In this document: positions 1,125 to 23,174 of the stretch, piece after piece
How positions within the stretch are numbered: position 1 is the stretch's first letter
Layout of the letters: every line of letters begins with the position of its first letter
Assembly (NCBI RefSeq): GCF_000018465.1
Contig: NC_010085.1
Span: forward strand, 1,050,001-1,082,000
Origin: Nitrosopumilus maritimus SCM1
GTDB taxonomy: Archaea; Thermoproteota; Nitrososphaeria; Nitrososphaerales; Nitrosopumilaceae
Length of the DNA stretch: 32,000 nt
Reading direction: 5' to 3'
The notes under the pieces: model-generated
Database searches by the model: none
Told to the model about the DNA's origin: nothing
The model's input: only the letters and a program-made list of their open reading frames with translations
Position numbers and translations under genes: made by a program

Positions 1125-1814
1125 CTAATTTTTGGCCCAACCACGCTGAATTAGCTTTTCCGCAGTATTGGAACTAACACAAGCAGGACTGTTATCTGTA
1201 GTTTTGAGTACCAATTGCAAATTTTCTTTGCATAAAATGTCATCAGGTAAAATACCACTTGCAACTTGTTTTAGGGGCGCCAGGTCTGAAGCAGGAGGAT
1301 CTACGTTAACATCTGATTCCAAATTATCGTTTTCCAATTTTTCTATGATTTGTACTACTAGAAATTCATAAACTAATGTTTCCACATCATTTGTGATTAA
1401 AACAAGTTTGTATTTTCCAGGAAGCTCATTAAAGAAGAATGTTTGAGGAAGTTGCCATTCACTGTGTGAAGTTGAAGGAGCTATACCTGTTTCTTTGGTA
1501 GTTGTCTTCCAGAGAACGCTGTCCCTGTATACGTTGATCATATCAGGGATTGTTCCATTCCCACCTATTCCATAAAAAGTTCCCAGATCAACAACAGGTA
1601 ATTTGGTATCAGGATCCTCAAAAATTCCAACAGAGCTGTCCACTACACTAAATATGCTCACGGATTGAGGTACAAATGTTTCATCACACAGTATGTTTTT
1701 TGTATTATTCATATTGATGCATTCATCATGTGCTGGCGAATCATCTGCAAATGATTTTTCAACATCAATTGTTAAAAGAAAAATTAGTGGAAGAATTATC
1801 CAAATTAGTTTCAT
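1125..1814 (-). CDS. Secreted hypothetical protein
   Basis: 229-aa ORF with an N-terminal signal-like segment (MKLIWIILPLIFLLTIDVEKSFA). No family recognised. Confidence 0.6.
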   Translation of the reverse strand: MKLIWIILPLIFLLTIDVEKSFADDSPAHDECINMNNTKNILCDETFVPQSVSIFSVVDSSVGIFEDPDTKLPVVDLGTFYGIGGNGTIPDMINVYRDSVLWKTTTKETGIAPSTSHSEWQLPQTFFFNELPGKYKLVLITNDVETLVYEFLVVQIIEKLENDNLESDVNVDPPASDLAPLKQVASGILPDDILCKENLQLVLKTTDNSPACVSSNTAEKLIQRGWAKN

Positions 1815-4156: not shown

Positions 4157-4861
4157 TTAAAACGCAATCAAATTCTCAAGAATTCCAATCTGAAATATTA
4201 TGTTAAACCCAATAATAAGACTGAATATTCCCGATACATATCTGAAAGTCTTTTGAATCATTCCAATTTTACTAGTAAAGACAAGAGGTATTCCCATGAG
4301 ACCTCCAACTAGAGTCATTCCAATCATCGAACCAATTCCAAATATCATAATAAAACTCAAAACCAGTTCAATATTTTCTAAAGTTGTGGCAGTTAACACT
4401 ACAAGACTTCCGCTTCCTGCCAACCCATGGATTAAACCAATCAAATATGATTTGTGAGCATGTCTATGATCAGAATCATTATGATTATGTTCATCAAGAT
4501 GAATAGTTCCATCTTTGTGTTGATGTGGGTGTTTGTGTTTGAGTTGGATTTTTTTATTAACAATTGTAGTTATTCCCAGAAATACAAGCATCAGTCCTAC
4601 TGCAAACTCAAATCCAAAAAAGATCTGATCCTGAATTGTTATTGCAAGTACATATACTAAAAATCCAATCAGAACTAGAGTTGTAGTGTGTCCTGCTCCC
4701 CAAAGTGCGCCAAGAATAGATGATTTTGTAAGAGATTCTTTGAGTGATGCTCCTACGGATTTCTGCAGATATTTTGATTTTGATATCTGAGTACTTACTG
4801 CAGCAACATGATCTGGTTCAAATGCATGTTGAATTCCAACTACAAGTCCTAATCCCATCAC
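4157..4861 (-). CDS. NicO/RcnA-like Ni/Co-type metal transporter with a His-rich loop
   Basis: Polytopic membrane protein with HAFEPDH (HX4DH-type signature) in the first helix and a central loop HKHPHQHKDGTIHLDEHNHNDSDHRHAH. The second half contains GLIHGLAGSG. Confidence 0.65.
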   Translation of the reverse strand: MMGLGLVVGIQHAFEPDHVAAVSTQISKSKYLQKSVGASLKESLTKSSILGALWGAGHTTTLVLIGFLVYVLAITIQDQIFFGFEFAVGLMLVFLGITTIVNKKIQLKHKHPHQHKDGTIHLDEHNHNDSDHRHAHKSYLIGLIHGLAGSGSLVVLTATTLENIELVLSFIMIFGIGSMIGMTLVGGLMGIPLVFTSKIGMIQKTFRYVSGIFSLIIGFNIIFQIGILENLIAF

Positions 4862-5188: not shown

Positions 5189-5299
5189 TTAACAATCACA
5201 TTTGCACCCTTTTCCAAACTTTGGATTGCATATTTTACAATCCAACATACACTTGTCTTCAGGGCAATAACCGCAAAACTGCTTTCTCTTGGATTCCAA
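5189..5299 (-). CDS. Candidate metallothionein-like Cys-rich micro-ORF (8 Cys in the last 28 residues)
   Basis: Hand translation, checked codon by codon, gives (TTG)ESKRKQFCGYCPEDKCMLDCKICNPKFGKGCKCDC*. It is in the same frame as the upstream Met-rich gene, 4 codons after that gene's TAG. An alternative ATG start at 5248 would give MLDCKICNPKFGKGCKCDC. Confidence 0.4.
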   Translation of the reverse strand: MESKRKQFCGYCPEDKCMLDCKICNPKFGKGCKCDC

Positions 5300-5311: not shown

Positions 5312-6625
5312 CTAAGGATTGTTCAGACTCTGTATGAATTGTTGATTGTTCATCATGTTATTCATCATTTGAGGATTCATCATCATGTTATTCATCATTT
5401 GCTGTCGTAGTTCTGGATCATCCATCATTTGGTTCATTATTGAACTCATCATGTTACCCATCATTCCTTGCATGTGCCAAGGATTGTTTAACATCATATC
5501 ATGCATGTTCTGCATTGCTTGTGGATTACTCATCATCTGATTCATCATGTTATTCATCATGTGGTGATTATTCATTGTCCAGTTACTGTTCATCACAGGA
5601 TTCATGTTCATCATGTTCATCATTTGATTATTGTTCATCATATCATACATCATTTGTGGGTGATTCATCATGTCAATCATCATCTGCTGTCTAAGTTCAG
5701 GATCATTCATTGCAGTTCCCATCATGCTTGTATTGTTCATAGTTGACATCATTCCGTGATTCATTCCCATCATGTTATTCATCATCATTCCTTTACCCAT
5801 CATAGAGCCACCCATCATGTTGTTGTTCATCATGTTATTTCCCATCATCATGTTTGAGCCCATCATGTTGCCCATCATCATTCCACCTTTCATCATGTTC
5901 ATCATCATTCCATTATTCATCATGTCTTGTATCATCTGAGGGTTGTTTGTCATCATATCCATCATTTGTTGTCTAGTAGTAGGATCATTCATCATTCCCA
6001 TCATACCATGATTCATTGAACCTCCCATCATCATGTTCATCATAGTACCATTTCCCCGAATTGTTTGCATCATTGGTTGGTGTTGCATCATCATATCCAT
6101 CATTTGTTGACGTAGTTCTGGATCATTCATCATAGTATTCATCATAGGACTCATCATCTGAGGGTTGTTTGTCATAGTTGACATCATTTGATTAGTCATT
6201 GTCTGCAAATGTTGAGGATCATTTGTCATGACATCATACCAAAGCTTTCCAGTTTGAGGATTGTTCATCATACTATTCATTACTCGTTGCATTTGTTGAG
6301 GATCGTTTGCCATCATGTTCATATCCCAATTACCCCAACCACGATCTGCCAATCTCAAATAGCTGTCAGGATTGACACAGACAGATGTTCCCATATTTCT
6401 CATCATGAGAACTTTGCCATCAACACATGTGATTTGGTCGGGACTTGTTCCCATCATCATTTGTTGTCTAGGGGTCATATGAGGAGTCATTTGAGCAAAA
6501 ACGGGTTCAGAGATTAATGAAAATGAAATTACTGTTAGAGTAAAAACCAAAATTCCCGCAAAGAGGTAGTTATTCAATGAATTTTTTATGTAATTATGGG
6601 ATTTAAGTGAAATTCCAATTTTCAT
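5312..6625 (-). CDS. Secreted or anchored, extremely Met/Asn-rich repeat protein (candidate Cu(I)-type metal-binding protein)
   Basis: 437 aa with an ATG start. An N-terminal hydrophobic segment (LFAGILVFTLTVISFSLISEPVFA) is followed by a domain with 124 Met by hand count. The unit NDPELRQQMM.DMM..NPQMM..MMNN recurs at least 4 times. Confidence 0.75.
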   Translation of the reverse strand: MKIGISLKSHNYIKNSLNNYLFAGILVFTLTVISFSLISEPVFAQMTPHMTPRQQMMMGTSPDQITCVDGKVLMMRNMGTSVCVNPDSYLRLADRGWGNWDMNMMANDPQQMQRVMNSMMNNPQTGKLWYDVMTNDPQHLQTMTNQMMSTMTNNPQMMSPMMNTMMNDPELRQQMMDMMMQHQPMMQTIRGNGTMMNMMMGGSMNHGMMGMMNDPTTRQQMMDMMTNNPQMIQDMMNNGMMMNMMKGGMMMGNMMGSNMMMGNNMMNNNMMGGSMMGKGMMMNNMMGMNHGMMSTMNNTSMMGTAMNDPELRQQMMIDMMNHPQMMYDMMNNNQMMNMMNMNPVMNSNWTMNNHHMMNNMMNQMMSNPQAMQNMHDMMLNNPWHMQGMMGNMMSSIMNQMMDDPELRQQMMNNMMMNPQMMNNMMNNQQFIQSLNNP

Positions 6626-6657
6626 AATTGATTCTATTAATTTAGAATGTTCTATTT

Positions 6658-6671
6658 ATATAATATTATAT
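6658..6671. promoter_or_regulatory. Perfect 14-bp palindrome ATATAATATTATAT in the divergent Met-rich / ArsR promoter region (candidate operator overlapping TATA boxes)
   Basis: Exact palindrome 33 nt from the Met-rich gene ATG (6625) and 15 nt from the preferred ArsR ATG (6686). It is AT-only, so it may simply be a bidirectional TATA element. Confidence 0.35.
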
Positions 6672-6685
6672 CATTAATTGATGAT

Positions 6686-7015
6686 ATGTTAAAGATGGTA
6701 AATGACAAACTGGAACTTAAAGCAAAATTGTTCAGAGGTTTCGGAGATGTGACAAGATTAGCCATTCTAGAATCAGTATCAGATGGAGAAAAGACAGTTA
6801 CAGAGATTGCAGAAAAACTAAAGCAAAGCCAACCAAACGTATCTAATCATTTGTCCTGCTTGTTAGAATGTGGTCTAGTCAAGAGCAGGAAGGATGGCAA
6901 GAATAGATTTTACAGTATTGGAGACAAAAGAGTTGCCAAGCTTCTCAAACAAAGTGATGATATTTTGACTGACATTGCAGATGGAATCTATTCCTGTGTC
7001 AATTACAAAAAATAA
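6686..7015 (+). CDS. ArsR/SmtB-family metal-responsive transcriptional repressor
   Basis: LFRGFGDVTRLAILESVSDGEKTVTEIAEKLKQSQPNVSNHLSCLLECGLVKSRKDGKNRFYSI is a canonical ArsR wHTH. Cys residues in CLLEC and the C-terminal YSCVNY are possible sensing ligands. The track start 6647 would place the TATA-like sequence inside the CDS, so ATG 6686 (or 6695) is preferred. Confidence 0.8.
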   Translation: MLKMVNDKLELKAKLFRGFGDVTRLAILESVSDGEKTVTEIAEKLKQSQPNVSNHLSCLLECGLVKSRKDGKNRFYSIGDKRVAKLLKQSDDILTDIADGIYSCVNYKK

Positions 7016-7093: not shown

Positions 7094-7711
7094 ATGTCTG
7101 ACGATGACGATTTACCAAAAGATCTAGCACACATCACTCCTGCTTATCGTAGAGCATTATGGATAGTTGTTTTGCTTAATGTGGGTTATGGATTAGTCGA
7201 AATGATTGGAGGATTCTTTGCAGATTCCCAAGCACTCAAAGCAGACGCACTAGATTTTCTAGGAGATGGTTCTATTACATTCTTAGGACTGCTTGCTATA
7301 GGATGGGGGCTTAAACTTCGAGCTCGTTCAGCACTCATTCAAGGAATATTTCTAGGAGTTATGGGAATTGGTGTTCTAGCGTACACAATTTACCGAACGC
7401 AAGTTCTACAAACCCCTGAAGCTGGACTAATGGGAATACTTGGTTTTGGTGCATTATTGATCAATGTTATTGCAGTTATCATATTGCTTCCACATCGAAA
7501 AGGTGATGCTAATGTTCGTGCAGTATGGCTCTTTAGTAGAAACGATGCACTTGGAAATATTTTGGTCATAGTCGGTGCAGGTTTTGTCTTTTTGACAGAC
7601 ACGTCATTTCCTGATCTTATTGTAGCAGGCATTATTGCAAGTCTCTTTTTGCAATCCTCATGGTCAATAATAAAAGATGCACGAAGTGATCTAAAAAAAT
7701 CTGAAGTGTGA
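7094..7711 (+). CDS. Cation diffusion facilitator (CDF) family transporter, short form lacking the usual cytoplasmic C-terminal domain
   Basis: LWIVVLLNVGYGLVEMIGGFFADSQALKADALDFLGDG is the typical CDF TM1-TM2 motif. The 205 aa comprise about 5-6 TM segments only. Confidence 0.7.
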   Translation: MSDDDDLPKDLAHITPAYRRALWIVVLLNVGYGLVEMIGGFFADSQALKADALDFLGDGSITFLGLLAIGWGLKLRARSALIQGIFLGVMGIGVLAYTIYRTQVLQTPEAGLMGILGFGALLINVIAVIILLPHRKGDANVRAVWLFSRNDALGNILVIVGAGFVFLTDTSFPDLIVAGIIASLFLQSSWSIIKDARSDLKKSEV

Positions 7712-7724
7712 GACTAATGGATAG

Positions 7725-7769
7725 TGTTTGGTTCACAGACCAATAGTTGTTTTACGAGTGTTGGTTCCA
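7725..7769 (+). repeat. 45-nt direct repeat, copy B
   Basis: 37 of 45 positions identical to 5121..5165. It starts 14 nt after the CDF stop codon. Confidence 0.6.
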
Positions 7770-7912
7770 ATCTCTACAGACTATGCCACCAAAGTGTCTT
7801 GAAAAAAGTTCCTAAAAACAACATATTTCAAACAAAATTTGTGTTGAGTGATGATTGTTAATCAAAGTTCAGTTTTGTAGCGGATTAAATATCATGAAAG
7901 GTAACAAATTGT

Positions 7913-9058
7913 GTGAAAAATTCAGTCTGTCTTGCACTGATCGCATCACTGATTTTAATTCTACCAGCACAATATGTTTATGCAGATAATTGGGGTTTAC
8001 CAACATTTGATCTAACCAATACTTTTGAATCAATAGTTGAGCCAATTTCAAAACCTGCTGAAATCAATGAGCTTATGTGGGAATTACCTTTCGTAATTCA
8101 AAAATTACATGATGGTATGATAGATTATGAAATTTTAGCCAAGATTGGAGACAAATTGCACTATGTCAAAAATACATATCCAGATGAATTTGATCTTTTA
8201 GTAACAATATTTCCAGATGTGCCAGAATTTCTAGATCATTTCTATACATATGAAAAATATGTTTTAATCAGTTCTATTTCACATTCAATGAATTCGGATG
8301 ATATTTTAGATATTCCTGAAATCACTATTCCATTACAACAGATTGCAATTGATGATATGATGATGCAAATGGCATATGCTGAAAATCTTGAAGGTGTGGA
8401 TTCTAAACAAGAGATTACAACAAAAATTGCATTTGAGGTTATGGAAAAAGTACACACAATTGATCCTAAATCAGGAAAAGAAGTATCTCTTGGAGAGCAT
8501 TTGAATACATTATTCCCAGAACGGACATATGAAGAGATGTTATTCTTAGTTACAGGTACAGAATACATTTTTTCAATACCTCTTGTACCTCATGAGGATC
8601 AACTCATATCTATAGATGAATTGTGTCAACGGGAGATAGACGCACAAAAATGTGAATTATTAAAAAAATATGCAATATTGGGTCACAAAGCTGCAAAAAA
8701 AGACCCTGATGCAGCATTAGAAATAACAAAAATAATTTTGGAAATTGCTCTTGATGTAAACTATAAGACAAATGCTGGACACGATGACAAGATACTATTT
8801 GCATTGTATTATGCCGATAAAAGTTCAGAAGAACTCTTAGATGAAAAAATGTTTAGGATTGACGGTAATATGATGTCATTGAATGACATGACTAATTTAC
8901 AATGTGGGGATGCAAACATCAGTCTTGCAGAAAAAATGATTGTAAGCTACAACTTCAAAAAACAAAATGTTGTGGAGATGCAATCCGAATATAATGATGT
9001 GATTAATCTTTTGCAAAACATCGATGAAGATAGTTGCAGTTTGTCATTAGTAAAGTAA
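7913..9058 (+). CDS. Secreted hypothetical protein
   Basis: 381-aa ORF with a signal peptide (MKNSVCLALIASLILILPAQYVYA) and a GTG start in the track. No family recognised. Confidence 0.6.
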   Translation: MKNSVCLALIASLILILPAQYVYADNWGLPTFDLTNTFESIVEPISKPAEINELMWELPFVIQKLHDGMIDYEILAKIGDKLHYVKNTYPDEFDLLVTIFPDVPEFLDHFYTYEKYVLISSISHSMNSDDILDIPEITIPLQQIAIDDMMMQMAYAENLEGVDSKQEITTKIAFEVMEKVHTIDPKSGKEVSLGEHLNTLFPERTYEEMLFLVTGTEYIFSIPLVPHEDQLISIDELCQREIDAQKCELLKKYAILGHKAAKKDPDAALEITKIILEIALDVNYKTNAGHDDKILFALYYADKSSEELLDEKMFRIDGNMMSLNDMTNLQCGDANISLAEKMIVSYNFKKQNVVEMQSEYNDVINLLQNIDEDSCSLSLVK

Positions 9059-9088
9059 TTTCATAAATAAAAATTTCAAATATGGAAG

Positions 9089-10267
9089 TTAACTATCCAA
9101 TAGAAACTCCTTTGTAAGTAAATTATTAGAAAGTTGTTTTTCTGCAGGCAAATATATCCACACGGGTATGTTCATTTGAGATAGATACTTGCAAAGTATG
9201 GGTCCAACATCTTCCCAACTTAGACGTCCTAAACCACAACCTAGTGCAGGAATTGCAAGTGATTCTATTCCTTTTTGTTCATAGTTATCTAAAAGCCATT
9301 TTAATCCCTGCTCTATACCCTCAATATCGCTATTATCTCGCCAGTGTTGTTTTGTAGCAAAAAGCAAAAACCATGTGTCTTTTTTATTTCCTAAAGAGCT
9401 AGGATCATCTGCAATTTGTTCATGATATGGGGCTTCACGTTGATACAATACAGGCTTGCCCATTCGAAGTGTTTTTCTTTTACACTGATCTTGATAGTGT
9501 ACATAAACATCTGGGAATTGATATTTTGCTCTAGAGGCCAACCCTTTTCCCATTACTCCAATACAATTTACACTTACAGTAAGGGTTTGCATTTTTGAGA
9601 AAAACAAATCTCCTTCTACCAATGAAAGATTTGAAGTGAGTGGAATTTGTCTTACAGGTTGGAAGAACATAGAAGGTTCAGGAATTATTGAAATGCTAGA
9701 AGACATAGAATTTCGTATTTCGTCTGCAAGAGTATGATTACTAACATAAATTGCACGAATGAATTCAGGTGGAATTCGTTCTGGAACTAGACATTCAGCC
9801 ATAATTTGTCTTTTAGTAGCATTACTATCTGTCCACCACTGTAAACTAGTAATTCTGTTAATTTGTCGTTCAATAGTTTTGAATTCAGTATTAGGATAGA
9901 AATGTGTAGGACCATTTGCAGCATTTCCGTCAGTGATAATTGTGTTAGGAGTAGTAAGGATTTTTTTATCAACAGCGACAACAGCTATGCAATCAGGAGA
10001 TTTTTCCATAGTTACACGGTACAGCATAGGATTTCGAGGTTGGAAATACAGATTAGCAAAATACCAAAGACTTTTCCCATTAGCGGTTTTTTCTCTTCTA
10101 CTGGAAACAATATCGCTGTCATAAATTGAAGTGTATTCGAGTTTTTGTTTTACAATTTGATCATGAGAGAGAATTCCATTTTGCAGCATGGACGGAATAT
10201 TGTCAATATGTGTAATGTAGAAAAGGTATTGGCTCAAGTCAGGAGTATAAATTTTGAATTCATCCAT
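9089..10267 (-). CDS. DarT-like (DUF4433) DNA ADP-ribosyltransferase fused to a C-terminal macrodomain
   Basis: N-terminal half: LFYITHIDNIPSMLQNGILSH, ANLYFQPRNPMLY and QIMAECLVPERIP, which are DarT hallmarks including the catalytic-Glu context. C-terminal half: VNCIGVMGKGLASRAKYQFP ... LAIPALGCGLGRLSWEDV, which is macrodomain-like. It is one uninterrupted 392-aa ORF. Confidence 0.75.
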   Translation of the reverse strand: MDEFKIYTPDLSQYLFYITHIDNIPSMLQNGILSHDQIVKQKLEYTSIYDSDIVSSRREKTANGKSLWYFANLYFQPRNPMLYRVTMEKSPDCIAVVAVDKKILTTPNTIITDGNAANGPTHFYPNTEFKTIERQINRITSLQWWTDSNATKRQIMAECLVPERIPPEFIRAIYVSNHTLADEIRNSMSSSISIIPEPSMFFQPVRQIPLTSNLSLVEGDLFFSKMQTLTVSVNCIGVMGKGLASRAKYQFPDVYVHYQDQCKRKTLRMGKPVLYQREAPYHEQIADDPSSLGNKKDTWFLLFATKQHWRDNSDIEGIEQGLKWLLDNYEQKGIESLAIPALGCGLGRLSWEDVGPILCKYLSQMNIPVWIYLPAEKQLSNNLLTKEFLLDS

Positions 10268-10285
10268 AATTCTCCATTTCTTATT

Positions 10286-10302
10286 ATGTATTTTAAATAC
10301 AT
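10286..10302. promoter_or_regulatory. 8+1+8 palindrome ATGTATTT-T-AAATACAT overlapping the TATA-like region of the DarT-macro gene
   Basis: Perfect inverted repeat 19-35 nt upstream of the ATG at 10267. It contains a TTTAAA core. Confidence 0.35.
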
Positions 10303-10418
10303 GATTGAGAGGATGGTATGGAATAGGTTAATTTGCCTAAAAATGGGATCTTTTCAGTGAATAATACTACCCACTAGGAACACAGATACATAGATAGAGT
10401 TGAAATTTCTAAAATTTT

Positions 10419-11375
10419 CTAGAATAATGTTTGGTTTCTTCCTGAAAGAACATCCATCATTCTTTTTACAGATTTTTTATCTTCTTTTTCAATTCTAGAT
10501 TTCAATGTGGTTAATGAACCAACATATTTTGAATCGCCCTTAGTTTTTCTAGAGTATGCCAAAATATAGTATTCAATATTTCCAGGAATTCCACGTATAG
10601 GAATAGTTTCTCCTAATTTTTTTCCTAAAATTTCTGAAAGTTTTTCTTGATACTTATCCTCAATTGTTTGTCCTTGTGATATCTCATACAATAAAGCCTC
10701 AGCATTTTCTTCACCCCAATATTCATTCCAAGTAGATTCTGTAGATGTATCGCCCTTATCCAATTTGCCTTTAACTCGTAAAAGACCCTGAGAACCCACA
10801 TTGATCATAAAATCTTGAGCAGGAAATGAGTCGCTAAGAAATTTTAGGGTCTTCATTTTTATTTCCATACCCTCAGGATCAACAAAAGTAAAAACAATAG
10901 GATTACTAAATTTAGATTTTATATTATTAACAACATTTGAAATAACAGCATTACAATCACCTTGAATCACATTAAATTTTTCTTTAGGAAGAATTTTGTC
11001 TAAACGTTGTTCTAAAACTTGGGATTTCTTCTTATCTTTTTCAACACATACAGCATAGTCAAAATTCATGTCCGGATGCGATAACGCACAAAGAGGAGAA
11101 CCTGCTATAATATCACCAGTTTCTCTTAATTTAACTAAACCTGAACCGGAAAAAAGATCAATGTAAACAGCACCATCATAATATTTTTTTGCTTTATCAT
11201 TTCGTCTTACAACATTCAGAAAAGTAGTTTTGTAATAATTTACAGAAATTAATTTTAATGCGGTATATTCTGCATATTCATTTTTAATTTCAGAATCAGG
11301 CACTTTCTGCGCAATTTTAGTTAGAATTTCTAATTTATTTCGAATCCAATCTTCTTGTTTCATTTTAGGAGGCAA
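10419..11375 (-). CDS. Three-Cys-motif partner protein TcmP-like (methyltransferase-fold)
   Basis: AVYIDLFSGSGLV (Gly-rich, SAM motif I-like), GSPLCAL, YAVCVEKD and its position next to a Gp37/Gp68 gene fit my recollection of the TcmP family. The track start is TTG 11375 and an ATG at 11363 is an alternative. Confidence 0.6.
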   Translation of the reverse strand: MPPKMKQEDWIRNKLEILTKIAQKVPDSEIKNEYAEYTALKLISVNYYKTTFLNVVRRNDKAKKYYDGAVYIDLFSGSGLVKLRETGDIIAGSPLCALSHPDMNFDYAVCVEKDKKKSQVLEQRLDKILPKEKFNVIQGDCNAVISNVVNNIKSKFSNPIVFTFVDPEGMEIKMKTLKFLSDSFPAQDFMINVGSQGLLRVKGKLDKGDTSTESTWNEYWGEENAEALLYEISQGQTIEDKYQEKLSEILGKKLGETIPIRGIPGNIEYYILAYSRKTKGDSKYVGSLTTLKSRIEKEDKKSVKRMMDVLSGRNQTLF

Positions 11376-11436
11376 AGTTACAGTGTTACGTTATGAAATT
11401 CGCCTTAAAACATTTAAAATTAATGATTTTTAGCTT

Positions 11437-12276
11437 ATGTCATTGGCAATTGGGTCGGGGATTGAGTGGACAGAGGCAACGTGGAACCCCACAAGTGGCT
11501 GTTCAAAAATTTCTCCAGGTTGTAAAAATTGCTATGCAGAGACACTTACTAAAAGATTGAAAGCTATGGGGCAACAAAAATATAAAAAAGGATTTCAATA
11601 TGTGGAACACCCTTCAGATGTCAATCTACCACTAACATGGAAAAAGCCCAAAAAGATTTTTGTTAATAGCATGTCAGATCTTTTCCACGAAAACTCAACA
11701 TTTGAGTTTACAGGCAAATGTTTTGCAACAATGATTCAGGCTGATCGTCATGATTATCAAATTTTAACAAAACGTCCAAAAAGAATGGCAGAATTCTCAA
11801 AAATATTTTTTGAATATTTTGGTCATAAAATTCCTAATTTCATGTGGATGGGAACAAGTATTGAAAATAAACAATATGTTTCAAGAATCAAAGATCTTCG
11901 AAAAGTCAAATGCCATACAAGATTCATTAGTTTTGAACCTCTTATTGGTTCAGTTGGAAAAGTGAACCTAAAAGGTATTGATTGGGCAATAATTGGAGGA
12001 GAAAGTGGTCATCATTTTAGAAAAGTAAAGAAAGAATGGATTGAAGAGATAATTGATCAATGTAAAGAACAAGAAGTTCCAGTATTTTTCAAACAATGGG
12101 GAGGATTCAGACCAAAATCTGGAGGAAGAACAATTAACAGAAGAAAGTATAGTGAATATCCAGAAATTGAGAAAAGAAATTCTTTGAAAAATGTTAATTT
12201 TGATGAAATTGCCTTTGCAGAAATGTGTATGAAACACGAAGCAATGAAAAGGGAACAAATGCTTGTAAAAAATTAA
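11437..12276 (+). CDS. Phage Gp37/Gp68 (DUF5131) family protein with an N-terminal three-Cys motif
   Basis: The opening IEWTEATWNPTSGCSKISPGCKNCYAE is the family signature. The later WAIIGGESG segment is also typical. ATG start. Confidence 0.8.
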   Translation: MSLAIGSGIEWTEATWNPTSGCSKISPGCKNCYAETLTKRLKAMGQQKYKKGFQYVEHPSDVNLPLTWKKPKKIFVNSMSDLFHENSTFEFTGKCFATMIQADRHDYQILTKRPKRMAEFSKIFFEYFGHKIPNFMWMGTSIENKQYVSRIKDLRKVKCHTRFISFEPLIGSVGKVNLKGIDWAIIGGESGHHFRKVKKEWIEEIIDQCKEQEVPVFFKQWGGFRPKSGGRTINRRKYSEYPEIEKRNSLKNVNFDEIAFAEMCMKHEAMKREQMLVKN

Positions 12277-12347
12277 TTTAGAAAAATTTTCAACACAGTG
12301 GGACTGTTAAGTTCCAGACATTGTTTTAGGCCCAATTTGGACACAGT

Positions 12348-13691
12348 TTAGAACAAAGATTTGATTCCATATAACAAGGACGTAATAAAATCAGAAATTG
12401 TTGCAATTATTCTGCCAATATGGTCATTTTCTGACAAATTTGATTCAAGGATCTTACCTTTAGAAGAGTCAGAATGTTCAGATTTTGTAATTTTTTCCTC
12501 AAGTGGCTGAATCATGGTTAGGCCGGAGGACTCTAACATGTCATCAAATGTCTGCTTAGCCTTGTTTATTTCTGCAACATAGTATTCTTTTTTGGAATCC
12601 TCCAAATCCAAAGACTGCATTTCCTCCAAAGAACGAACATGTTGTTGATCAAGGTTCTCAGATTTTACCTTGAAAATTTCACCCCATATTGAAATCTGCC
12701 CAGAATAAAATTCCCGAGACAGTCCTGCATCAGCCAAAGCCAAATCAAGATATTTTTCAGGATCGTTTTCCATTAATTTTATGTTCTCTACAATTTGAGG
12801 ATTGAATTGATCTATGTGTCTGGTGAAAAATTCCTCCATGTATTCCAAGTGTAATTGCCCGTCAGAGTTGGAAACAGATACAATGTTCAATGACGTGCTG
12901 CCAAAATTTGCAAGAATTTTCTTTGCTTGTTTTTCTTGCAGCGTTTTGTGTTCTTCTTGTTTTTGTTCTAAAGTTGTTTCTTCTGTTTTGGAATCAGGAA
13001 AATCAGATTCTGCCGTTTGATAATTCTCCAATGCAACAGGTACAGTAAGAGTTTCTGTTTCCCAGGGATGTATCATGCAGAAAAAAGAATAGACACCATT
13101 CTCAAGAACATAGGATACGGATTCTCCCTTGTGAATAATTCCAGAAGAAAACAACGGTGTGTGTTTTGCAGGAGTACCGCTTGTTATTGTATGGGACAAA
13201 CTATCCTTTGATGTCCATGTAACTTTCTCACCGTTTTCTAATTTCTCAACATCAATTGTAAAATTATCAAACAGAGAATCAGATTGGTACGATGTTTTTT
13301 TAATTACATTTGTATCAACCAAAAATTCCAAGCTTGAAAGAAACTCGGAATCAGACACAATGCCGTCTGTCCACCAGTCTGCAGTATTTTTTATCCAATC
13401 AGGAATTCCGGCGGACGGACTTGTAGGATCAAACAATGGCACTGAAATCAAATTTTGGTTTGCTAGATATTCTGTTGACAAGATAAATTCATCATCTGCA
13501 ATTTGTCTTTCCGTCCACATGATTACAAATTCTGTATACCAGTTTGGAAAATCACCAGATTCTTGGGCATATGCAAAAGACGGGATTATCAGAGCAAATG
13601 CCAATACAAGATACGTCAGATGCAAGCATGGTGTGGAGCGTGTACTAGTATATGAATATTCATGGAATTCATGGTAATCATGGCTATACAT
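12348..13691 (-). CDS. Secreted protein with a thaumarchaeal WW..G.I.D.EF repeat pair and a cupredoxin-like domain
   Basis: Signal-like LHLTYLVLAFALIIPSFAYA. Two repeats (FPNWYTEFVIMWTERQIADDEF..., IPDWIKNTADWWTDGIVSDSEF...). Cupredoxin pattern TWTSKDSLSHTITSG...YSFFCMIHPWETETLTV. The track start 13745 (TTG) would overlap the AbrB-like ORF, so ATG 13691 or a later start is more plausible. Confidence 0.65.
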   Translation of the reverse strand: MYSHDYHEFHEYSYTSTRSTPCLHLTYLVLAFALIIPSFAYAQESGDFPNWYTEFVIMWTERQIADDEFILSTEYLANQNLISVPLFDPTSPSAGIPDWIKNTADWWTDGIVSDSEFLSSLEFLVDTNVIKKTSYQSDSLFDNFTIDVEKLENGEKVTWTSKDSLSHTITSGTPAKHTPLFSSGIIHKGESVSYVLENGVYSFFCMIHPWETETLTVPVALENYQTAESDFPDSKTEETTLEQKQEEHKTLQEKQAKKILANFGSTSLNIVSVSNSDGQLHLEYMEEFFTRHIDQFNPQIVENIKLMENDPEKYLDLALADAGLSREFYSGQISIWGEIFKVKSENLDQQHVRSLEEMQSLDLEDSKKEYYVAEINKAKQTFDDMLESSGLTMIQPLEEKITKSEHSDSSKGKILESNLSENDHIGRIIATISDFITSLLYGIKSLF

Positions 13692-13723
13692 AATTTTCTT
13701 GATATCTTTGATTTTCATGAGAT

Positions 13724-13873
13724 ATGGCAAAAATTCTAGGCTCAAGTAAAGTTACTGTTAGATATCAGATTACAGTACCCGAGGATGTCAGGAAGGTTAT
13801 GAAAATTGAGTCCGGTCAGACTCTAGCATTTGTTGAGGAAGACGGCAAAATTGTCCTAAAGACAGATGTATAG
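13724..13873 (+). CDS. AbrB/SpoVT (MazE-like) domain DNA-binding micro-protein, 49 aa
   Basis: Hand translation gives MAKILGSSKVTVRYQITVPEDVRKVMKIESGQTLAFVEEDGKIVLKTDV, which fits the swapped-hairpin AbrB pattern (QITVP..VRK...I..G..L.F.E.DGKIVLK). Missing from the ORF track. Confidence 0.6.
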   Translation: MAKILGSSKVTVRYQITVPEDVRKVMKIESGQTLAFVEEDGKIVLKTDV

Positions 13874-13933
13874 AAATTTCAAAAAAAATCCATCATTTTA
13901 TAACGAACCTCAAAATGGATGTCATGAAAGGTA

Positions 13934-14774: not shown

Positions 14775-14778
14775 TTTA

Positions 14779-15132: not shown

Positions 15133-15271
15133 CAGAGACCAGCCCTCACAATCATTAGAGTATTATCAGAATTCATGTTTTGGTACGGTAATAGTACCGC
15201 ATTGTACCTAATAAAGATGATCGTAGAATTTTTTGATCCAGCATGATCAAACATGTCAAAAGAATATAGTG

Positions 15272-16448: not shown

Positions 16449-16520
16449 CAAAAATCCTTTCTTCATTTTTATTAAAATTAATTTTAGAAAATGCGATCCA
16501 CCATATCTTGTAAAAAAATA

Positions 16521-16723
16521 ATTTATTTTTTTACACAGTTATTTTCAGGCGTGCCAACCATGCTTTTAGCATAACAGCTTTGTGATCGGACATAAGACAG
16601 ATCAGAAATTCTGCTTGATTTTTTTAATTTTTTTATTTGCGGTAATTTTTCAGGCACAGCAACCATCCTTTAAGGATGACAGCTTTATGATCGGGTAAAA
16701 CAGAGATCAGAATTTTAGTCTTG
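16521..16723. repeat. Two tandem copies of a ~105-bp element with conserved hairpins
   Basis: The landmark ttcaggc occurs at 16544 and 16649, giving a period of 105. Both copies share ..caaccat.ctttta.g.at.acagcttt.tgatcgg....a.aca.agatcagaa.tt... Each has a 5-bp hairpin (ATGC/GCAT in copy A, ATCC/GGAT in copy B) and a TGATC...GATCA hairpin. Confidence 0.65.
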
Positions 16724-17632
16724 GACGGAATCTCCCCAATAAGTCCATGTTCCGTCATCTGCAGAGTCTTTGCCCCTTGCAAACATTTCAAACTTCTTTT
16801 TTGCAGGATAGTATTTTTCAATCATACGATAAAACATGCGAGGCTTTTCAGAGTGTCTTGTTCTTTCTGCCATTCCAACAGAGGACACACGTACAGACTC
16901 TGGTGGAACTCCTGGGTTTCCTTTGGTGCCAACAAGCAGAAGCTCATGTGATCCCTTAAAGTAATACCCAGTACCGTTTTGCAGTTTGTTGTTTTTTTGT
17001 TTTACCCACACCATGTTTGTTTTGTAAGTAAAACCCCAATGTTTCATAAGAGACAATGCCTCGTCAAGTTTGGGATTCGTAGTCCACATAAACAAAATGC
17101 AGTCCTTGTATGAGGGAACATTAGGAATCTCCAATTTCATTTCTTCAAGTGTCATTGTTTTGTAATCAGGTGCTCCTTCTAATGGCAAGTCATATTTCCA
17201 GGGAGGATCTGCAACAATTACCTCGTACTGGTTTTTTGGCAGATTGGGAGTTGGAGTTGTGGCCTTTTTTGCAGTGTTGATCATTTTGTGAGCATAGTCT
17301 ATGCTCATACCGGACTCTATTCTTTGAGGGATATTGCCAAATTCCTTTGGATTTTCCCTCACCTGCTGCTCTATTGCCATGATTTTGTCAATTTGGCCTC
17401 CAGACACGCCTACATAATGCGCAATTTCGTCACGAACCTTGAATTTTGGCTCACCTGGTGATAATTTGACACCAGCTTGGCGGCGTTTTTTGGCCTCTTC
17501 ATCTAGCTTGGGTTTTAGCTTGGAAATTATCTCACACATTTCAGAAAACGTGAAGTTTTTTCGAATTGTGTTTTCTGTAATTTCTATTTGCTGACCCAAA
17601 GGCAAGTCCTGCAAAAGTGTCTCATCAATCAT
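16715..17632 (-). CDS. MT-A70-family N6-adenine DNA methyltransferase with an N-terminal ParB-like HTH segment
   Basis: VIVADPPWKY (DPPW catalytic motif), and later FMWTTNPKL and HSEKP. The N-terminal ~110 aa resemble the HTH/middle part of ParB-type proteins. Confidence 0.8.
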   Translation of the reverse strand: MIDETLLQDLPLGQQIEITENTIRKNFTFSEMCEIISKLKPKLDEEAKKRRQAGVKLSPGEPKFKVRDEIAHYVGVSGGQIDKIMAIEQQVRENPKEFGNIPQRIESGMSIDYAHKMINTAKKATTPTPNLPKNQYEVIVADPPWKYDLPLEGAPDYKTMTLEEMKLEIPNVPSYKDCILFMWTTNPKLDEALSLMKHWGFTYKTNMVWVKQKNNKLQNGTGYYFKGSHELLLVGTKGNPGVPPESVRVSSVGMAERTRHSEKPRMFYRMIEKYYPAKKKFEMFARGKDSADDGTWTYWGDSVQD

Positions 17633-18657: not shown

Positions 18658-19332
18658 ATGGTTAATCGAATTACTAAAAGATCCGAGCATGGCAATACAC
18701 TCCAGATAATTCAAAAATTTCTAGCAAAAGTAGAAGAGGCAACAGTCAGTCAAATCGAAAAAGAGTTAGCAAGTAAGGAAATAAAATACAAAAGCAAGCG
18801 TTCTGTAATTGCAAGACTAAACAGACTCGTTGAACAGAATTTTTTAGAAAAGATAGAGTACAAAGATGTTCCAAGGTACTGTCTTCCAAATGGACGAATG
18901 ACTCCATCACATATTGGATTGATGATAAAAACAGAGACAAACAATTTCCTAGGCAAAACAATGTCAAGGATTGGGGCAAAAAAATTCCTTAAATTTTATT
19001 CAAAATTTGCAGGAGTGTATGAGATGTATGTAGAAGCGCTCAGCTGGAAGTTGTTCAAGGATGAAAAGAATTTTAGAAAAAGAACAAGAAGTAGAGAGGA
19101 ATTTTTACAAGAGGCACTTCAATTAAGAATTCCGTTTCCAAAGAGCATAGCAGAGTTGGCTCAAATCCATGACATGAAAAAAATTGAGATCATTTACAAG
19201 AACTGTGAAAAGATCGTTTTAGAAACAGAGTCAAAATTAGATGAAGAATGTTTGGAGATATGCAAGGGAATGTTCAGGATTACAGAAGAAAAAATTTCAC
19301 ATATTGCAAAAACAAAAGATCCTATTCTGTAA
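18658..19332 (+). CDS. wHTH transcriptional regulator of the element (divergent from the operon)
   Basis: The N-terminal LQIIQKFLAKVEEATVSQIEKELASKEIKYKSKRSVIARLNRLVEQNFLEKI is wHTH-like. The rest has no recognised family. Confidence 0.5.
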   Translation: MVNRITKRSEHGNTLQIIQKFLAKVEEATVSQIEKELASKEIKYKSKRSVIARLNRLVEQNFLEKIEYKDVPRYCLPNGRMTPSHIGLMIKTETNNFLGKTMSRIGAKKFLKFYSKFAGVYEMYVEALSWKLFKDEKNFRKRTRSREEFLQEALQLRIPFPKSIAELAQIHDMKKIEIIYKNCEKIVLETESKLDEECLEICKGMFRITEEKISHIAKTKDPIL

Positions 19333-20524
19333 CAGTCCAGCCTTTTTGCGTTAATTCTTTTTTTACCCGCTCAACAGCATCATCCACCAATGTTGGAATT
19401 TGTTCCTCAAGATTCTTTTTCGCTTCTTTGAGTTTCTGATTTTCAAATTTTACGCGTTCAGTGTCTGAAATTGTAAGAAATGGGATTGCCTTTTCATATT
19501 CGGAGAATCTCTCAAAATCCTCTTCAGCGTATCGCTCATAGTGCTTTTCCAAGCCTGTCTTGTGTCCCATCATGTCTTCCTTGTCTAGGAAGTCTACCTT
19601 GGCTCGCCTGAGATTTGTGTTAAAGGATTTTCTAAAGCCATGGTCCAGTTTTACCTCGTGTCTTCGCCTTCCTGGAGGTAGAGGAGGTCTAAGACCAATT
19701 GCGCGAACTACATTCTCAACTCTCCTTCGAACGCCCTTGTGATTTAGTCTGTGTATTGTAGGATACTTTACTGCCTTGAGCAGCGGATCATCAGGATTTG
19801 GATATACACCAATGTCAGCCTTCCATTTTTCTCGATACATGTCAAGGTAATTGCATGCCTCTGGCGTGATAAATGTCCAATATTGTTCTGGGTCATTTCT
19901 GTAAACACACAGTGCTGCACCTCTAAAGCTGTCATCAGGATTTCTAAAAAATACCACGTCCTTCCATGTAAAATAATCCCATGACTCTAGTCGGAATCCT
20001 GCTGATGCAAACATTGTAACTATTACCTTGTCGGTAATGTCGTTTGACACCTCAAGCATTCTCTGCATCTCTTCTGTGGTGTATGCTCTATCGTTTGAGC
20101 CTCGGGTAATCCTCGGATACAGTTTTGACAAAGACTTCCAGTGAACTGCAATTCGATTAGAGTCAAGTAGTACCTTAATTGGCTTGATATGATTTGGAAG
20201 TGTCTGCGGACTAATCTCTCCTGCTTCCACTCTCTTCTTGTCTTCCTTGATGTATGCGGCAATAATGTCTGATGCTAGATCAGAACTCTTTCTTGCAGCA
20301 TCAACAAAGAATTTTGCAAGTGTTGTAGCTTCATTGTTTGGAGGTTTTTCTCCTAGTGCATCTTGGTAGATTTCGTTTGGGATTAATTTTAGAAACGTGT
20401 ACAGCAGATTCTTGTATCTCCTTTTTGTCTCCTTGTGTTTTATCGAGTCCAAAAAAAGTTGGTAGGGATCACTTCTTGTGTTTATCTTCTCTAGGGTAAT
20501 TTCCATCAGATGATGCCATGACAT
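19322..20524 (-). CDS. Tyrosine recombinase / phage-type integrase
   Basis: C-terminal catalytic region with LDHGFRKSF (HxxR) and MMGHKTGLEKHYERY (His ... Tyr nucleophile), and an upstream GFRLES Arg box. 400 aa. Confidence 0.85.
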   Translation of the reverse strand: MSWHHLMEITLEKINTRSDPYQLFLDSIKHKETKRRYKNLLYTFLKLIPNEIYQDALGEKPPNNEATTLAKFFVDAARKSSDLASDIIAAYIKEDKKRVEAGEISPQTLPNHIKPIKVLLDSNRIAVHWKSLSKLYPRITRGSNDRAYTTEEMQRMLEVSNDITDKVIVTMFASAGFRLESWDYFTWKDVVFFRNPDDSFRGAALCVYRNDPEQYWTFITPEACNYLDMYREKWKADIGVYPNPDDPLLKAVKYPTIHRLNHKGVRRRVENVVRAIGLRPPLPPGRRRHEVKLDHGFRKSFNTNLRRAKVDFLDKEDMMGHKTGLEKHYERYAEEDFERFSEYEKAIPFLTISDTERVKFENQKLKEAKKNLEEQIPTLVDDAVERVKKELTQKGWTVTE

Positions 20525-21456: not shown

Positions 21457-21837
21457 TTGGAAATTCAAGAAATATCACCTGTTGTAATTTACGATAATGC
21501 ATGTCATCTTTGTGCAAAGTTTGCAAGTACAGTTAACTTTTTTGCTAGAGGGAAGATTGCATTAGTTGGGCATTATTCTGAAACGGGAGAAAAACTTCGA
21601 AAACAATATCTTGATTCTAGTGCAACAGAAATGTTTTGGTTTATTGATGGAAAAAATGCATATGGTGGTCGTGCAGCATTGTTACCATTAATTGGAGAAA
21701 TTCTTTTCTCAAAGAAAAGAGCACCAATTCAAACAATAGTTGAAGAGACATGTGATGCGGGATGTAAAGCACCTAATGCAGTCTTTGTAAGATCTGCTAG
21801 TCTTTTTACTCATAGCAAAAAGATCAAAATCAACTAG
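21457..21837 (+). CDS. DCC1-like (DUF393) thiol-disulfide oxidoreductase
   Basis: VVIYDNACHLCAKFASTVNFFARGKIALVG gives the DUF393 N-terminal CxxC in its usual vlYDg.C.lC context. TTG start in the track. Confidence 0.65.
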   Translation: MEIQEISPVVIYDNACHLCAKFASTVNFFARGKIALVGHYSETGEKLRKQYLDSSATEMFWFIDGKNAYGGRAALLPLIGEILFSKKRAPIQTIVEETCDAGCKAPNAVFVRSASLFTHSKKIKIN

Positions 21838-23174
21838 TTTTCTAATGGGACAATCCAAGACTTTGGAAGAAGTGTTCTTGGTTCTTTTGCCAAATCAACG
21901 TTTGGGTAAATTAATTTTTGATAATCTCGCCCATTTACAGAGGATGTTATATCCACTCGAATCTCAATGTCTTCATATCCTTGACTGCGATATTTTTCTG
22001 CAAGAAAATGGCTGTACTGTAAAATCATATCAGGTCTTGTAGACATTTTAGATTCTTGTCTTGCAGTTAGGTCCTCATCATGATCTACTGTCCAACTCCT
22101 TCCTGTACTAGGATCTGTTGCTGTAAATTCCATAAACAACGTATCTTTGTCTCTAAGCTTCATGTGCCATGCAAAATTGTGCCCTTCTTCAGTCCAGCTA
22201 ACATTTCCAGGATATGCATAATGACGTAAGGGCAGGGTAATTTGTACAACAAGGAAAATCAGGATTAGGGATAAGACAATTTTTTGGTTTTTTGTCAATG
22301 TTGTGATTTTGGATTTTGGTTTTTTTGCTACTTTGAATCTCTTTAAGACTCTAGGCCAACTAGGAACAAAGAAGATCAAAGTTGCAAAAATCATAAACCA
22401 CGGAAATATTCCAATTGAAAATAGTTGTGCGTTTAGAAGGTGAAATGAAACTAAAATTGCATATGCAAAAATTCTAGAACGGCGCCAGAGCAAAAACGGT
22501 ACTGCAAGCAAATCAACAAACAAGGCACTATATGCAAAAAACATTACAAACCACTCTTCAGTAAAAAACTGACCTAAAAGAGGAAACGTATCAGCTTCAC
22601 TTTCAAGCCAGAATCTTAATGGATATCCTGCAAGCCAATCAGGATTTAGTTTTGCAATGCCACCAAAAAAGTATGGAATTCCAACTAGAATTCTCAAAAG
22701 CCATAACGAGTATGCTGAAATAAAATCAGTTCTAATTTTCTTGTTGAACCATGAATCAATGGAAAGTGATCTATTTGCAGGAATGAAGATAAGAATAAAG
22801 CTGACAAGCCAAATCAAATAAAAGTGATTGAGATATCTCGATTGTTCTGAGAAAAAGATCTGGGAGAAAGCCAAGAAAAACAAAATTGCACAAATTCGGT
22901 ATTTGAATCCAACCATTATGCAGACAGACAAAACCCCCATTGCAGCAAAATGCACATACATCAGATCACCAGGCCATGGCTTTACCCAATCAAATCCATA
23001 GTATGTAAAATGGAATATTGGATCTATCCAGTATTTAGATATCCAATCATGTTCAAAATATCGAAACACTTCCCAAAGCATAACAGCTCCAAAAATTATC
23101 CTGAAGTAAACCAGAATTGCAATATCACTTGGCTCAAATAGTTTTTGCAAAATTGTTGTTTTTGCAATACTCAT
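21834..23174 (-). CDS. HTTM-domain (vitamin K-dependent gamma-carboxylase-like) membrane protein
   Basis: ILVYFRIIFGAVMLWEVFRYF...DPIFHFTYYGFDWVKPWPG...YLNHFYLIWLVSFILIFIPANRSLSID parallels the N-terminal HTTM/VKGC pattern. Polytopic, 446 aa. Confidence 0.75.
   Translation of the reverse strand: MSIAKTTILQKLFEPSDIAILVYFRIIFGAVMLWEVFRYFEHDWISKYWIDPIFHFTYYGFDWVKPWPGDLMYVHFAAMGVLSVCIMVGFKYRICAILFFLAFSQIFFSEQSRYLNHFYLIWLVSFILIFIPANRSLSIDSWFNKKIRTDFISAYSLWLLRILVGIPYFFGGIAKLNPDWLAGYPLRFWLESEADTFPLLGQFFTEEWFVMFFAYSALFVDLLAVPFLLWRRSRIFAYAILVSFHLLNAQLFSIGIFPWFMIFATLIFFVPSWPRVLKRFKVAKKPKSKITTLTKNQKIVLSLILIFLVVQITLPLRHYAYPGNVSWTEEGHNFAWHMKLRDKDTLFMEFTATDPSTGRSWTVDHDEDLTARQESKMSTRPDMILQYSHFLAEKYRSQGYEDIEIRVDITSSVNGRDYQKLIYPNVDLAKEPRTLLPKSWIVPLEN

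Follow-up and report, generated by a model that had tools for sequence, protein, structure and literature searches.

A conserved methionine-rich protein family of Nitrosopumilaceae, encoded beside metal-sensor and cation-efflux genes, as a possible soft-metal sponge

The methionine-rich gene and its product

The window analyzed here is a stretch of 32,000 nucleotides (nt) from the genome of the marine, ammonia-oxidizing archaeon Nitrosopumilus maritimus SCM1 (NC_010085.1, positions 1,050,001 to 1,082,000), and our subject is an open reading frame (ORF) on its minus strand, 5312–6625, that encodes 437 amino acids (aa) from an ATG start. A count of its composition gives 124 methionines (28.4%), and the share is 31.3% (123 of 393 residues) in the mature part that follows the predicted cleavage after ...VFAQ and before M. 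Both figures reproduce the hand count of a first-pass annotation of this DNA, which had reported 124 of 437 residues and about a third of the mature region. The next residues are N (15.8%), Q (8.2%), and G (6.6%), which together make up about 31%, and there are 11 His and a total of 17 Lys and Arg. The frame contains 124 in-frame ATG codons vs 13 and 1 in the remaining two frames, and other long ORFs of the window have a Met share of 1–9%. The protein carries 55 MM, 34 MxxM, and 56 MxxxM motifs, along with 10 motifs of the form H-x(0-3)-M.

The gene lies between Nmar_1153 and Nmar_1155 and, from this place, presumably has the locus tag Nmar_1154. Genomes of Nitrosopumilus and Nitrosarchaeum yielded orthologues at loci L006 (417 aa, 29.7% Met), L007 (443 aa, 30.9%), L009 (427 aa, 30.2%), L010 (438 aa, 31.1%), and L011 (419 aa, 25.3%), as well as at L008, where the ORF was trimmed to 440 aa for comparison (30.5% Met; 29.5% in the full 455 aa). 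The ratio of nonsynonymous to synonymous substitution rates (dN/dS) between the window gene and its orthologues is 0.09–0.13 overall, at dS of 0.4–1.5. For example, the Nei-Gojobori estimates against L010, L006, and L008 are 0.112, 0.111, and 0.086, respectively (dS 0.96–1.55), with protein identities of 78–82%. The low-complexity core is also kept among the orthologues, bar a single 19-aa indel. These low ratios mean that the ORF is no chance occurrence; judged by its substitutions, it is a genuine, strongly conserved gene under purifying selection. Tandem repeats in its DNA are short and degenerate (periods of 9–27 nt, 2–4.7 copies), on which we reject recent slippage as the origin of the protein repeats and take these to be ancient. 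Most orthologues begin at a position matching residue 17 of the window protein, and gene callers run on independent Logan assemblies predict the identical 437-aa product. Upstream, a TATA-like box read from the sequence (TTATATAAATA) stands about 33 nt 5' of the ATG, and a conserved TTTAAATTTA box stands about 25–30 nt ahead of the orthologue starts, which would fit leaderless or short-leader transcripts.

A 2025 RefSeq-based expression table of SCM1 passes from Nmar_1153/NMAR_RS06195 to Nmar_1155/NMAR_RS06200 with no row between them, and the exact 437-aa protein is absent from the named-protein collection, in which both neighbors are present. Together, these gaps suggest that the gene is missing from the current RefSeq annotation. 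With 17 Lys/Arg among 124 oxidizable Met, the product would, moreover, be difficult to pick up by tryptic proteomics, and as such existing omics studies have probably never reported it. A full-text literature search found no paper on the gene, on the locus tags of its neighbors, or on the WING-49 domain described below, and none that links Met-rich proteins with ammonia-oxidizing archaea (AOA).

The same gaps could be taken to mean that the ORF is untranslated: it would be an artefact of DNA rich in ATG/CAT, or else a non-coding element like the 91-nt tRNA-Trp that ARAGORN places at 6579–6669(+), overlapping the ORF start. We give this next to no credence, as the substitution pattern at dS of about 1 effectively refutes it. 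The 191 homologues with co-linear motifs, the in-frame cupredoxin fusions, the Logan gene calls, and the suitable distance between TATA-like box and ATG also stand against it. For the tRNA candidate, Rfam gives no tRNA match at E <= 1, and the fold is no cloverleaf and of unremarkable stability (z = -1.1); we regard the candidate as a false positive in AT-rich promoter DNA.

At its N-terminus, the protein has a hydrophobic helix (residues 9–43 in the AlphaFold2 (AF2) model) followed by a family-conserved ...FAQ, in which A44 and Q45 are nearly invariant. On these features, we predict Sec-type secretion, in agreement with the first-pass annotation; the helix may instead be an uncleaved membrane anchor. 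The next segment is a WING-49 domain, which matches positions 1–48 of the 49-position NF058652 profile with 64.7 bits (E = 6e-18; cut-off 22 bits) and places the protein among the NF058652 WING-49 proteins. This label, the one curated name that applies, covers only the small 49-residue N-terminal domain and neither the Met-rich part nor any function. The short Cys-containing segment noted earlier downstream of the hydrophobic stretch (ITCVDGKVLMMRNMGTSVCVNPD, residues 65–87) belongs to this domain, and its invariant C67 and C83 are the only 2 Cys in the whole protein. WING-49 also has the motif LADRGWG (family form L-x-D-R-G-W-G), and in the AF2 model it folds into a beta-hairpin and a helix, with a predicted local distance difference test score (pLDDT) of 76–90.

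The helical region that follows consists of about 20 short helices, each opening at an N/D-P cap. Aligning all units yields a 14-residue pattern, x-[ND]-P-[QE]-(M/L/H)-(M/R)-Q-Q-M-M-[ND]-x-M-M, with apolar residues (Met or other) at P+2/3, P+6/7, and P+10/11 and Q/N/D elsewhere. The identical pattern is found in 313 units of closer relatives and in 284 units of a class of relatives with a transmembrane (TM) anchor. This spacing makes each helix amphipathic, and the apolar face consists nearly entirely of Met. The four [ND]DPxxRQQM repeats begin at residues 167, 213, 307, and 402, which matches the at least 4 repeats of NDP(E/T)(L/T)RQQMM type counted before, and the MM(G/N) runs are present too. 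In the first helical block, AF2 predicts helices H109–H237 at pLDDT of about 62–85, down to 44 at residues 201–210. The packing is not confident, though the helices are: the predicted template modeling score (pTM) is 0.36 in the window protein vs 0.58 in a 302-aa relative. The second block includes a core module, NPQAMQNMHDMMLNNPWHMQGMM...DDPELRQQMMNNMMMNPQMM, that the window protein has in common with the TM-anchored cupredoxin proteins. The C-terminus (...QQFIQSLNNP) is followed by no cupredoxin domain, and the protein belongs to neither cupredoxin family (PF00127, PF13473) and lacks the His...Cys...His...Met set of a type 1 copper (T1-Cu) site.

No copper- or silver-resistance family of Pfam or NCBIfam matches the Met-rich protein at E <= 0.01. 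The profiles of CusF, CopC/PcoC, CopM/DUF305, CopZ/HMA, PCuAC, Sco, and Csp in these two collections give no match, and NCBIfam returns WING-49 only. A sequence search of the PDB finds nothing below E = 0.02, and Foldseek finds no PDB match at E <= 0.001 with either AF2 model. Sub-threshold matches to TetR_C_28, TetR_C_11, and T4SS BID were judged composition artefacts.

Table 1. Features of the window, with positions counted from its first nucleotide
Feature	Position	Strand	Details
Met-rich gene	5312..6625	-	437 aa
N-terminal extension and predicted Sec-type signal peptide	6494..6625	-	residues 1-44, ending ...SEPVFA before Q
WING-49 domain	6332..6472	-	residues 52-98, NCBIfam NF058652
First helical Met-rich block	5909..6307	-	residues ~107-239; [ND]-P-capped 14-residue helices, including NDPELRQQMM and NDPTTRQQMM
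MMG/MMN low-complexity core	5732..5908	-	residues ~240-298; predicted disordered, pLDDT 32-45
Second helical block	5315..5731	-	residues ~299-437; includes the core module
TATA-like box	6653..6663	-	ahead of the Met-rich gene
Inverted repeat ATATCAT-N6-ATGATAT	6668..6687	.	perfect 7-6-7; at the ArsR 5' end, between two TATA-like elements
Cys-rich micro-ORF	5189..5299	-	36 aa, 8 Cys; conserved TTG start; 12 nt after the Met-rich stop
NicO/RcnA-like membrane protein, Nmar_1153	4157..4861	-	His-rich loop HKHPHQHKDGTIHLDEHNHNDSDHRHAH, resembling that of the Ni/Co exporter RcnA
ArsR/SmtB metalloregulator, Nmar_1155, ABX13051	6647..7015	+	divergent from the Met-rich gene
Short CDF cation-efflux protein, Nmar_1156, ABX13052	7094..7711	+	205 aa, without C-terminal cytoplasmic domain; Pfam Cation_efflux 1.1e-17
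Second WING-49 protein	1125..1814	-	secreted; WING-49 at residues 180-228
DarT-Macro ORF	9089..10267	-	392 aa; DarT ssDNA thymidine ADP-ribosyltransferase (E = 9e-50) and C-terminal Macro domain
DUF5131 ORF	11437..12276		
MT-A70 methyltransferase	16715..17632		
400-aa ORF	19322..20524		no integrase domain by Pfam
HTTM/gamma-carboxylase ORF	21834..23174	-	446 aa; HTTM and vitamin-K-dependent gamma-carboxylase lumenal domain (E = 1e-80, 3e-46)

Relatives, cupredoxin fusions, and gene neighborhood

A word-indexed search finds 191 homologues, essentially all from Nitrosopumilaceae. Two metagenome-assembled genomes (MAGs) labeled bacterial are among them. One is the 'Planctomycetota' contig L008, whose ArsR and CDF are 87–91% identical to the SCM1 proteins, and we judge these labels to be the result of mis-binning; the second is a 2.8-kb contig with a lone 37-residue match. 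The family is undescribed, specific to the Nitrosopumilaceae lineage, and compositionally extreme. Its alignment (A1) shows positional homology across the family, beyond a shared composition. The order is signal peptide, SPRQQ(M/W), WING-49, and a first helical block ending in MMGPMMNDPELRQQM, followed by a variable center and then by the second block, WMMxNPQHMQ...MHxMMxxNPxHM...MMDDPELRQQM.... Most members have CPWCP...C(A)WC in the center, where the window clade has an MMG/MMN expansion and extra NDPxxRQQMM units (A1 columns 201–330). Even in distant members, with only 12–16% Met, Met and His account for most of the invariant or near-invariant columns. Conserved columns in A1 are M179, M185, M378, and M385, the latter two invariant, and the nearly invariant H384; a further alignment, A2, has conserved His columns at H114 and H254.

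About half of the close relatives run on into an amicyanin-like T1-Cu domain (...YYCIAHPWM...). For example, P0001 and P0004 have the window-type N-terminal architecture and then a plastocyanin/amicyanin-like domain with an intact H...C-x2-H-x2-M. A composition-adjusted homology search, of the kind the first-pass annotation had proposed, also reveals a second, homologous protein class in which the Met-rich module stands between a TM anchor at the N-terminus and a Cupredoxin_1/CuA-like domain. Specifically, the C-terminal ~87 residues of the window protein match P0106 at 4e-15, with 56% identity over 87 aa (BLASTP with compositional adjustment). The C..H..M copper-site signature is present at the C-terminus of at least 44 of the 120 relatives listed. 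Rarer fusion partners are cupredoxin with EB_dh, rhodanese, a Vgb-like propeller, DUF1264, and DUF7482. An exhaustive profile search gave 3700 matches with a profile that held plastocyanin columns, so that most long matches are ordinary plastocyanin-domain proteins, and it served only to find further WING-49 and Met-rich members. Many thaumarchaeal plastocyanin-domain proteins (such as P0166, P0194, P0216, and P0270) also end in WING-49, as does another secreted protein of the window (Table 1), and the domain may serve to anchor or dock extracytoplasmic copper proteins.

The neighbors of the Met-rich gene are those named in the first-pass annotation: a divergent ArsR, a CDF, a His-rich NicO-like protein, and a Cys-rich micro-ORF (Table 1). 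Nmar_1155 matches Pfam HTH_5 (3.9e-18) and NCBIfam HTH_metalloreg (9.6e-25), and its best specific NCBIfam match, below cut-off, is the Cd/Pb sensor CmtR (1e-17). Its recognition helix contains a CxxxC, and a further Cys lies at the C-terminus. A direct comparison with a CmtR sequence agrees with the likeness, though as a lead only. Nmar_1153 matches NicO (6.1e-5) and DsbD_2 (3.8e-5) of Pfam, both below cut-off; a published table assigns it to arCOG HoxN, and its RefSeq name, 'high frequency lysogenization protein HflD', looks like a mis-annotation. For the CDF, metal specificity was read by eye from the TM2/TM5 site residues, and this reading was dropped as unreliable given the atypical protein. 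Farther away, the SCM1 region holds three DsbA-like genes, a DsbD, a YHS/TRASH gene, a thioredoxin/glutaredoxin-like gene, and a plastocyanin.

The micro-ORF has a common form across loci, 34–36 aa with (M/L)ESKKKQFCGYCPEDKCLLDCKICNP...C.C and 7–8 Cys. It is kept at 69–82% identity in L006 (~7251–7364), L008 (4737–4847), and L010, which has two copies (8083–8193 and 11377–11481), and it is degenerate in L009 and L011. In L006 it lies directly downstream and overlaps the 3' end of the Met-rich gene by a few bases. Gene callers left it uncalled on the Logan contigs. It is possibly co-transcribed with the Met-rich gene and could be a cytoplasmic metallothionein-like or zinc-ribbon peptide, in parallel to smtB-smtA. 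In L010, a Nitrosopumilus chromosome, the Met-rich gene and the micro-ORF are separated by two small membrane-protein genes in tandem (109 and 118 aa; 7346–8028(-)), whose products look YnfA/UPF0060-like by eye.

The link to ArsR and/or CDF recurs in 8 type-A loci from both subclades (L007–L010, L012–L014, and L016). ArsR is divergent, as in the window, in L008, L012, L013, and L014, and it is divergent in L007 as well. A CDF adjoins the Met-rich gene in L007, L008, L009, L010, and L012, lying directly upstream on the same strand in L007, L009, and L010 (with a gap of 78 nt in L010); in L016 there is just a 38-residue CDF match, immediately upstream on the same strand. Other contexts are found too. 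The L011 paralogue is flanked by a multicopper oxidase and a DtxR-type repressor, the L021 member precedes a DUF302 gene, a subfamily of ~300 aa lies between an amidohydrolase and ribose-5-phosphate isomerase (RpiA), and DsbA-like genes flank relatives in L004, L007, and L010.

The inverted repeat listed in Table 1 occurs once in the window. It is exact in 6 of 6 ArsR-bearing loci other than SCM1 (L007, L008, L012, L013, L014, and L040) and always lies at the ArsR 5' end, including in a Nitrosotenuis locus where ArsR identity is as low as 63%. On this conservation the palindrome is a good candidate for the ArsR operator, and it would place ArsR, the CDF, and the Met-rich gene under one sensor. 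Its position also implies that ArsR probably starts at the ATG at 6686, as in the 109-aa RefSeq form, and not at 6647. The locus thus has both marks of an ArsR/SmtB metal module, i.e. conserved adjacency of the sensor and an operator-like inverted repeat in the shared promoter.

Elsewhere in the window, the segment from ~9000 to 20600 has a mobile-element flavor, with the DarT-Macro ORF, the DUF5131 and MT-A70 methyltransferase genes, and several ORFs without a Pfam match; GC content is 36–40% over ~13–20 kb vs 31–35% on most flanks. By its domains, the DarT-Macro ORF looks like a fused DarT-DarG-like toxin-antitoxin. The HTTM/gamma-carboxylase ORF belongs to an animal-like enzyme family that is unusual in an archaeon.

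Possible roles of the methionine-rich protein

We favor, at somewhat less than an even chance, the reading that the Met-rich protein is an extracytoplasmic thioether sponge or chaperone for soft metals of the Cu(I) type. The fusions to copper domains, the conserved Met, His, and CxxC columns, the Cys-to-Met swap, and the ArsR-CDF linkage together point to soft-metal binding outside the membrane. Specifically, MMG/MMN in place of CPWCP...C(A)WC would exchange one kind of soft ligand for another, in support of this reading. The protein would be exported and its signal peptide then removed, and the disulfide-type WING-49 would hold it below the S-layer or dock it to a partner. Its ~20 short amphipathic helices, with Met faces, a few conserved His, and a flexible MMG/MMN mid-segment, would offer many sites at which thioether clusters of neighboring helices bind Cu+, Ag+, and perhaps Cd2+ or Hg2+. 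In this way, the protein would buffer metal that enters the compartment or is pumped there by the adjacent exporters. In the fused relatives, the Met-rich module would pass copper to the attached cupredoxin, and the divergent CmtR-like ArsR would control expression via the palindrome.

A number of observations weigh against the sponge or chaperone. The sensor is CmtR-like (Cd/Pb), the CDF and NicO/RcnA-like exporters move divalent cations, which thioethers bind poorly, and no gene for a Cu(I) P-type ATPase, CopZ, or CusF-like protein is adjacent to the Met-rich gene. Met stands exactly at the apolar, a/d-like positions of the amphipathic helices, and it may form a hydrophobic core or a flexible hydrophobic binding surface, in which case part of the Met would be structural. 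The ~300-aa subfamily lies among housekeeping genes (amidohydrolase and RpiA), and some fusions are non-copper (rhodanese, Vgb-like propeller, DUF1264, and DUF7482). Pfam, NCBIfam, PDB, and Foldseek searches give no sequence or fold match to known metal-binding families, and the gene has no row in the 2025 expression table. Given the divalent-cation type of the sensor and exporters, the context suggests defense against metal excess, and the neighborhood points to metal defense at least as much as to copper supply. The periplasmic Cu(I) buffer of the first-pass annotation is plausible and has gained support from the fusions and synteny, yet it is only partly upheld: the fusions, the L011 multicopper oxidase, and the 8-locus linkage favor a metal, and, with a sensor and exporters of divalent type, the context resembles excess defense more than copper supply or buffering.

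A bolder form of the sponge reading, which we consider unlikely yet worth stating, is that the 14-residue NP-capped Met helix represents a new fold for high-capacity metal binding by thioethers. Such a fold would take up Cu(I) in the pseudo-periplasm of marine ammonia oxidizers and load cupredoxins, in cis if fused and in trans if stand-alone, and would represent an archaeal, oxidation-resistant counterpart of metallothionein or Csp. If so, the copper enzymes of ammonia oxidation might likewise receive their metal from it.

The methionines could also act on oxidants instead of metals, as the first-pass annotation had allowed. In such a sacrificial antioxidant sink, the protein would scavenge the H2O2, HOCl, and NO-derived oxidants of ammonia oxidation, shield ammonia monooxygenase and the cupredoxins, and have its Met sulfoxide re-reduced with electrons from the neighboring DsbD/thioredoxin-like system. 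The 124 Met in a secreted protein would suit this role, and so would the thiol-redox genes that abound in the SCM1 neighborhood and the DsbA-like genes beside relatives at other loci; AOA are not known to have a catalase and are sensitive to H2O2. By contrast, none of MsrA, MsrB, and MsrP is next to any member in the loci examined, and the partners conserved beside the gene are a metal sensor and an exporter rather than redox regulators. A bulk sink has no need of Met positioned on one helix face with His and CxxC, and it leaves the cupredoxin-specific fusion unexplained. For these reasons, we hold both the sink and its proposed re-reduction to be improbable. We see about the same low likelihood that the plastic Met faces form a 'methionine bristle' that binds hydrophobic peptides, lipids, or quinone-like ligands, the protein being an extracytoplasmic holdase or a docking arm for partners that include the attached cupredoxins. 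Amphipathic units with a Met face, helices that AF2 predicts more confidently than their packing, and diverse fusion partners are what this surface would lead one to expect, but it leaves the conserved His and CxxC unexplained, as well as the linkage to ArsR, CDF, and multicopper oxidase, and the protein resembles none of SRP54-M, Get3, and calmodulin in sequence or fold.

The Met might even be tolerated without being used, if the module is a structural spacer or tether, i.e. a flexible arm that places WING-49 and the cupredoxins in the pseudo-periplasm or S-layer, with the stand-alone window protein a degenerate derivative that has lost its cupredoxin. Indeed, an anchor always precedes the module, either a signal peptide with WING-49 or a TM helix, and a globular domain follows it at the C-terminus; WING-49 is C-terminal in many thaumarchaeal plastocyanin proteins, and the window clade has no C-terminal domain. 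Yet dN/dS is about 0.1 over the full length, low-complexity core included, and the stand-alone forms are kept across Nitrosopumilus and Nitrosarchaeum at high identity. Invariant Met and His columns are rare in linkers, and 124 Met are a cost that is hard to justify for a neutral spacer; we thus see little prospect for the arm or for the degenerate derivative. The probability that remains falls to something other than the explanations named here.

Nitrosopumilaceae, among the most abundant microbes of the ocean, rely on copper proteins for their energy metabolism, and canonical copper chaperones are not evident in them. Its restriction to this lineage, strong purifying selection, recurrent cupredoxin fusions, and ties to metal sensors and exporters make the family a concrete, clonable candidate for the missing extracytoplasmic copper step, or for metal defense. 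Its compositional extreme (28% Met, and up to 31% in orthologues) would also make it a useful model for thioether-metal chemistry or Met redox buffering.

Comparison with known methionine- and sulfur-rich proteins

The amphipathic helices with a Met-dominated apolar face resemble the methionine bristle of the SRP54 M-domain and Get3. Those proteins, however, are cytosolic, bind signal or tail-anchor peptides, and contain far less Met; they match the window protein neither in sequence nor in fold. Csp1/Csp3 and the metallothioneins are similar in their many sulfur ligands, with high-capacity binding only proposed here. Csp serves methanotrophs, whose key monooxygenase needs copper. An ArsR divergent from the binder gene parallels smtB-smtA, with the Cys-rich micro-ORF directly downstream. 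In contrast to Csp and metallothionein, the potential ligands are thioethers and not thiolates, there is no confident four-helix bundle, and there is no homology; and unlike for Csp, the exporter context points to excess and not to supply.

In the Met-rich helix of CueO and in PcoC/CopC, CusF, the Mets motifs of Ctr1, and CopI, MxxM/MxM clusters lie near or are fused to cupredoxin folds in an oxidizing extracytoplasmic compartment. The fused relatives are like such Met-rich cuproproteins (CueO, CopI, and others) in having a Met-rich region and then a T1-Cu domain. The Met tract spans 10–50 residues in CueO, PcoC, CusF, Ctr1, and CopI vs ~340 residues, or nearly the whole protein, here, and the window protein matches none of the CueO-, CopC-, CusF-, or Ctr1-type Pfam families and has no cupredoxin domain.

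SilE and PcoE are periplasmic Met/His sponges, disordered in the free state, that turn helical on binding 6–8 Ag+ or Cu+, and they are defined by the motifs MxxHxxxxxHxxM and HxxMxxxHxxM and by ten conserved His (PMC5008109). The window protein lacks this defining set and any detectable homology to them. SilE and PcoE have ~120–145 aa with 10 His, 10–15 Met, and MxxH/HxxM motifs, as opposed to 124 Met, 11 His, and a 14-residue NP-capped repeat plus WING-49 here. The settings differ too, since the window protein is archaeal with ArsR and CDF neighbors, and SilE/PcoE are encoded with a two-component system and RND and P-type ATPase genes. What they share is secretion and partial disorder, both predicted for the window protein, repeated Met motifs in helix-forming segments, and a place beside metal sensors and exporters, as well as a proposed role in the first-line binding of several soft metal ions (PMC5008109). 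On these likenesses, the SilE/PcoE sponges would be the closest analogues of the Met-rich protein in mechanism, albeit non-homologous ones.

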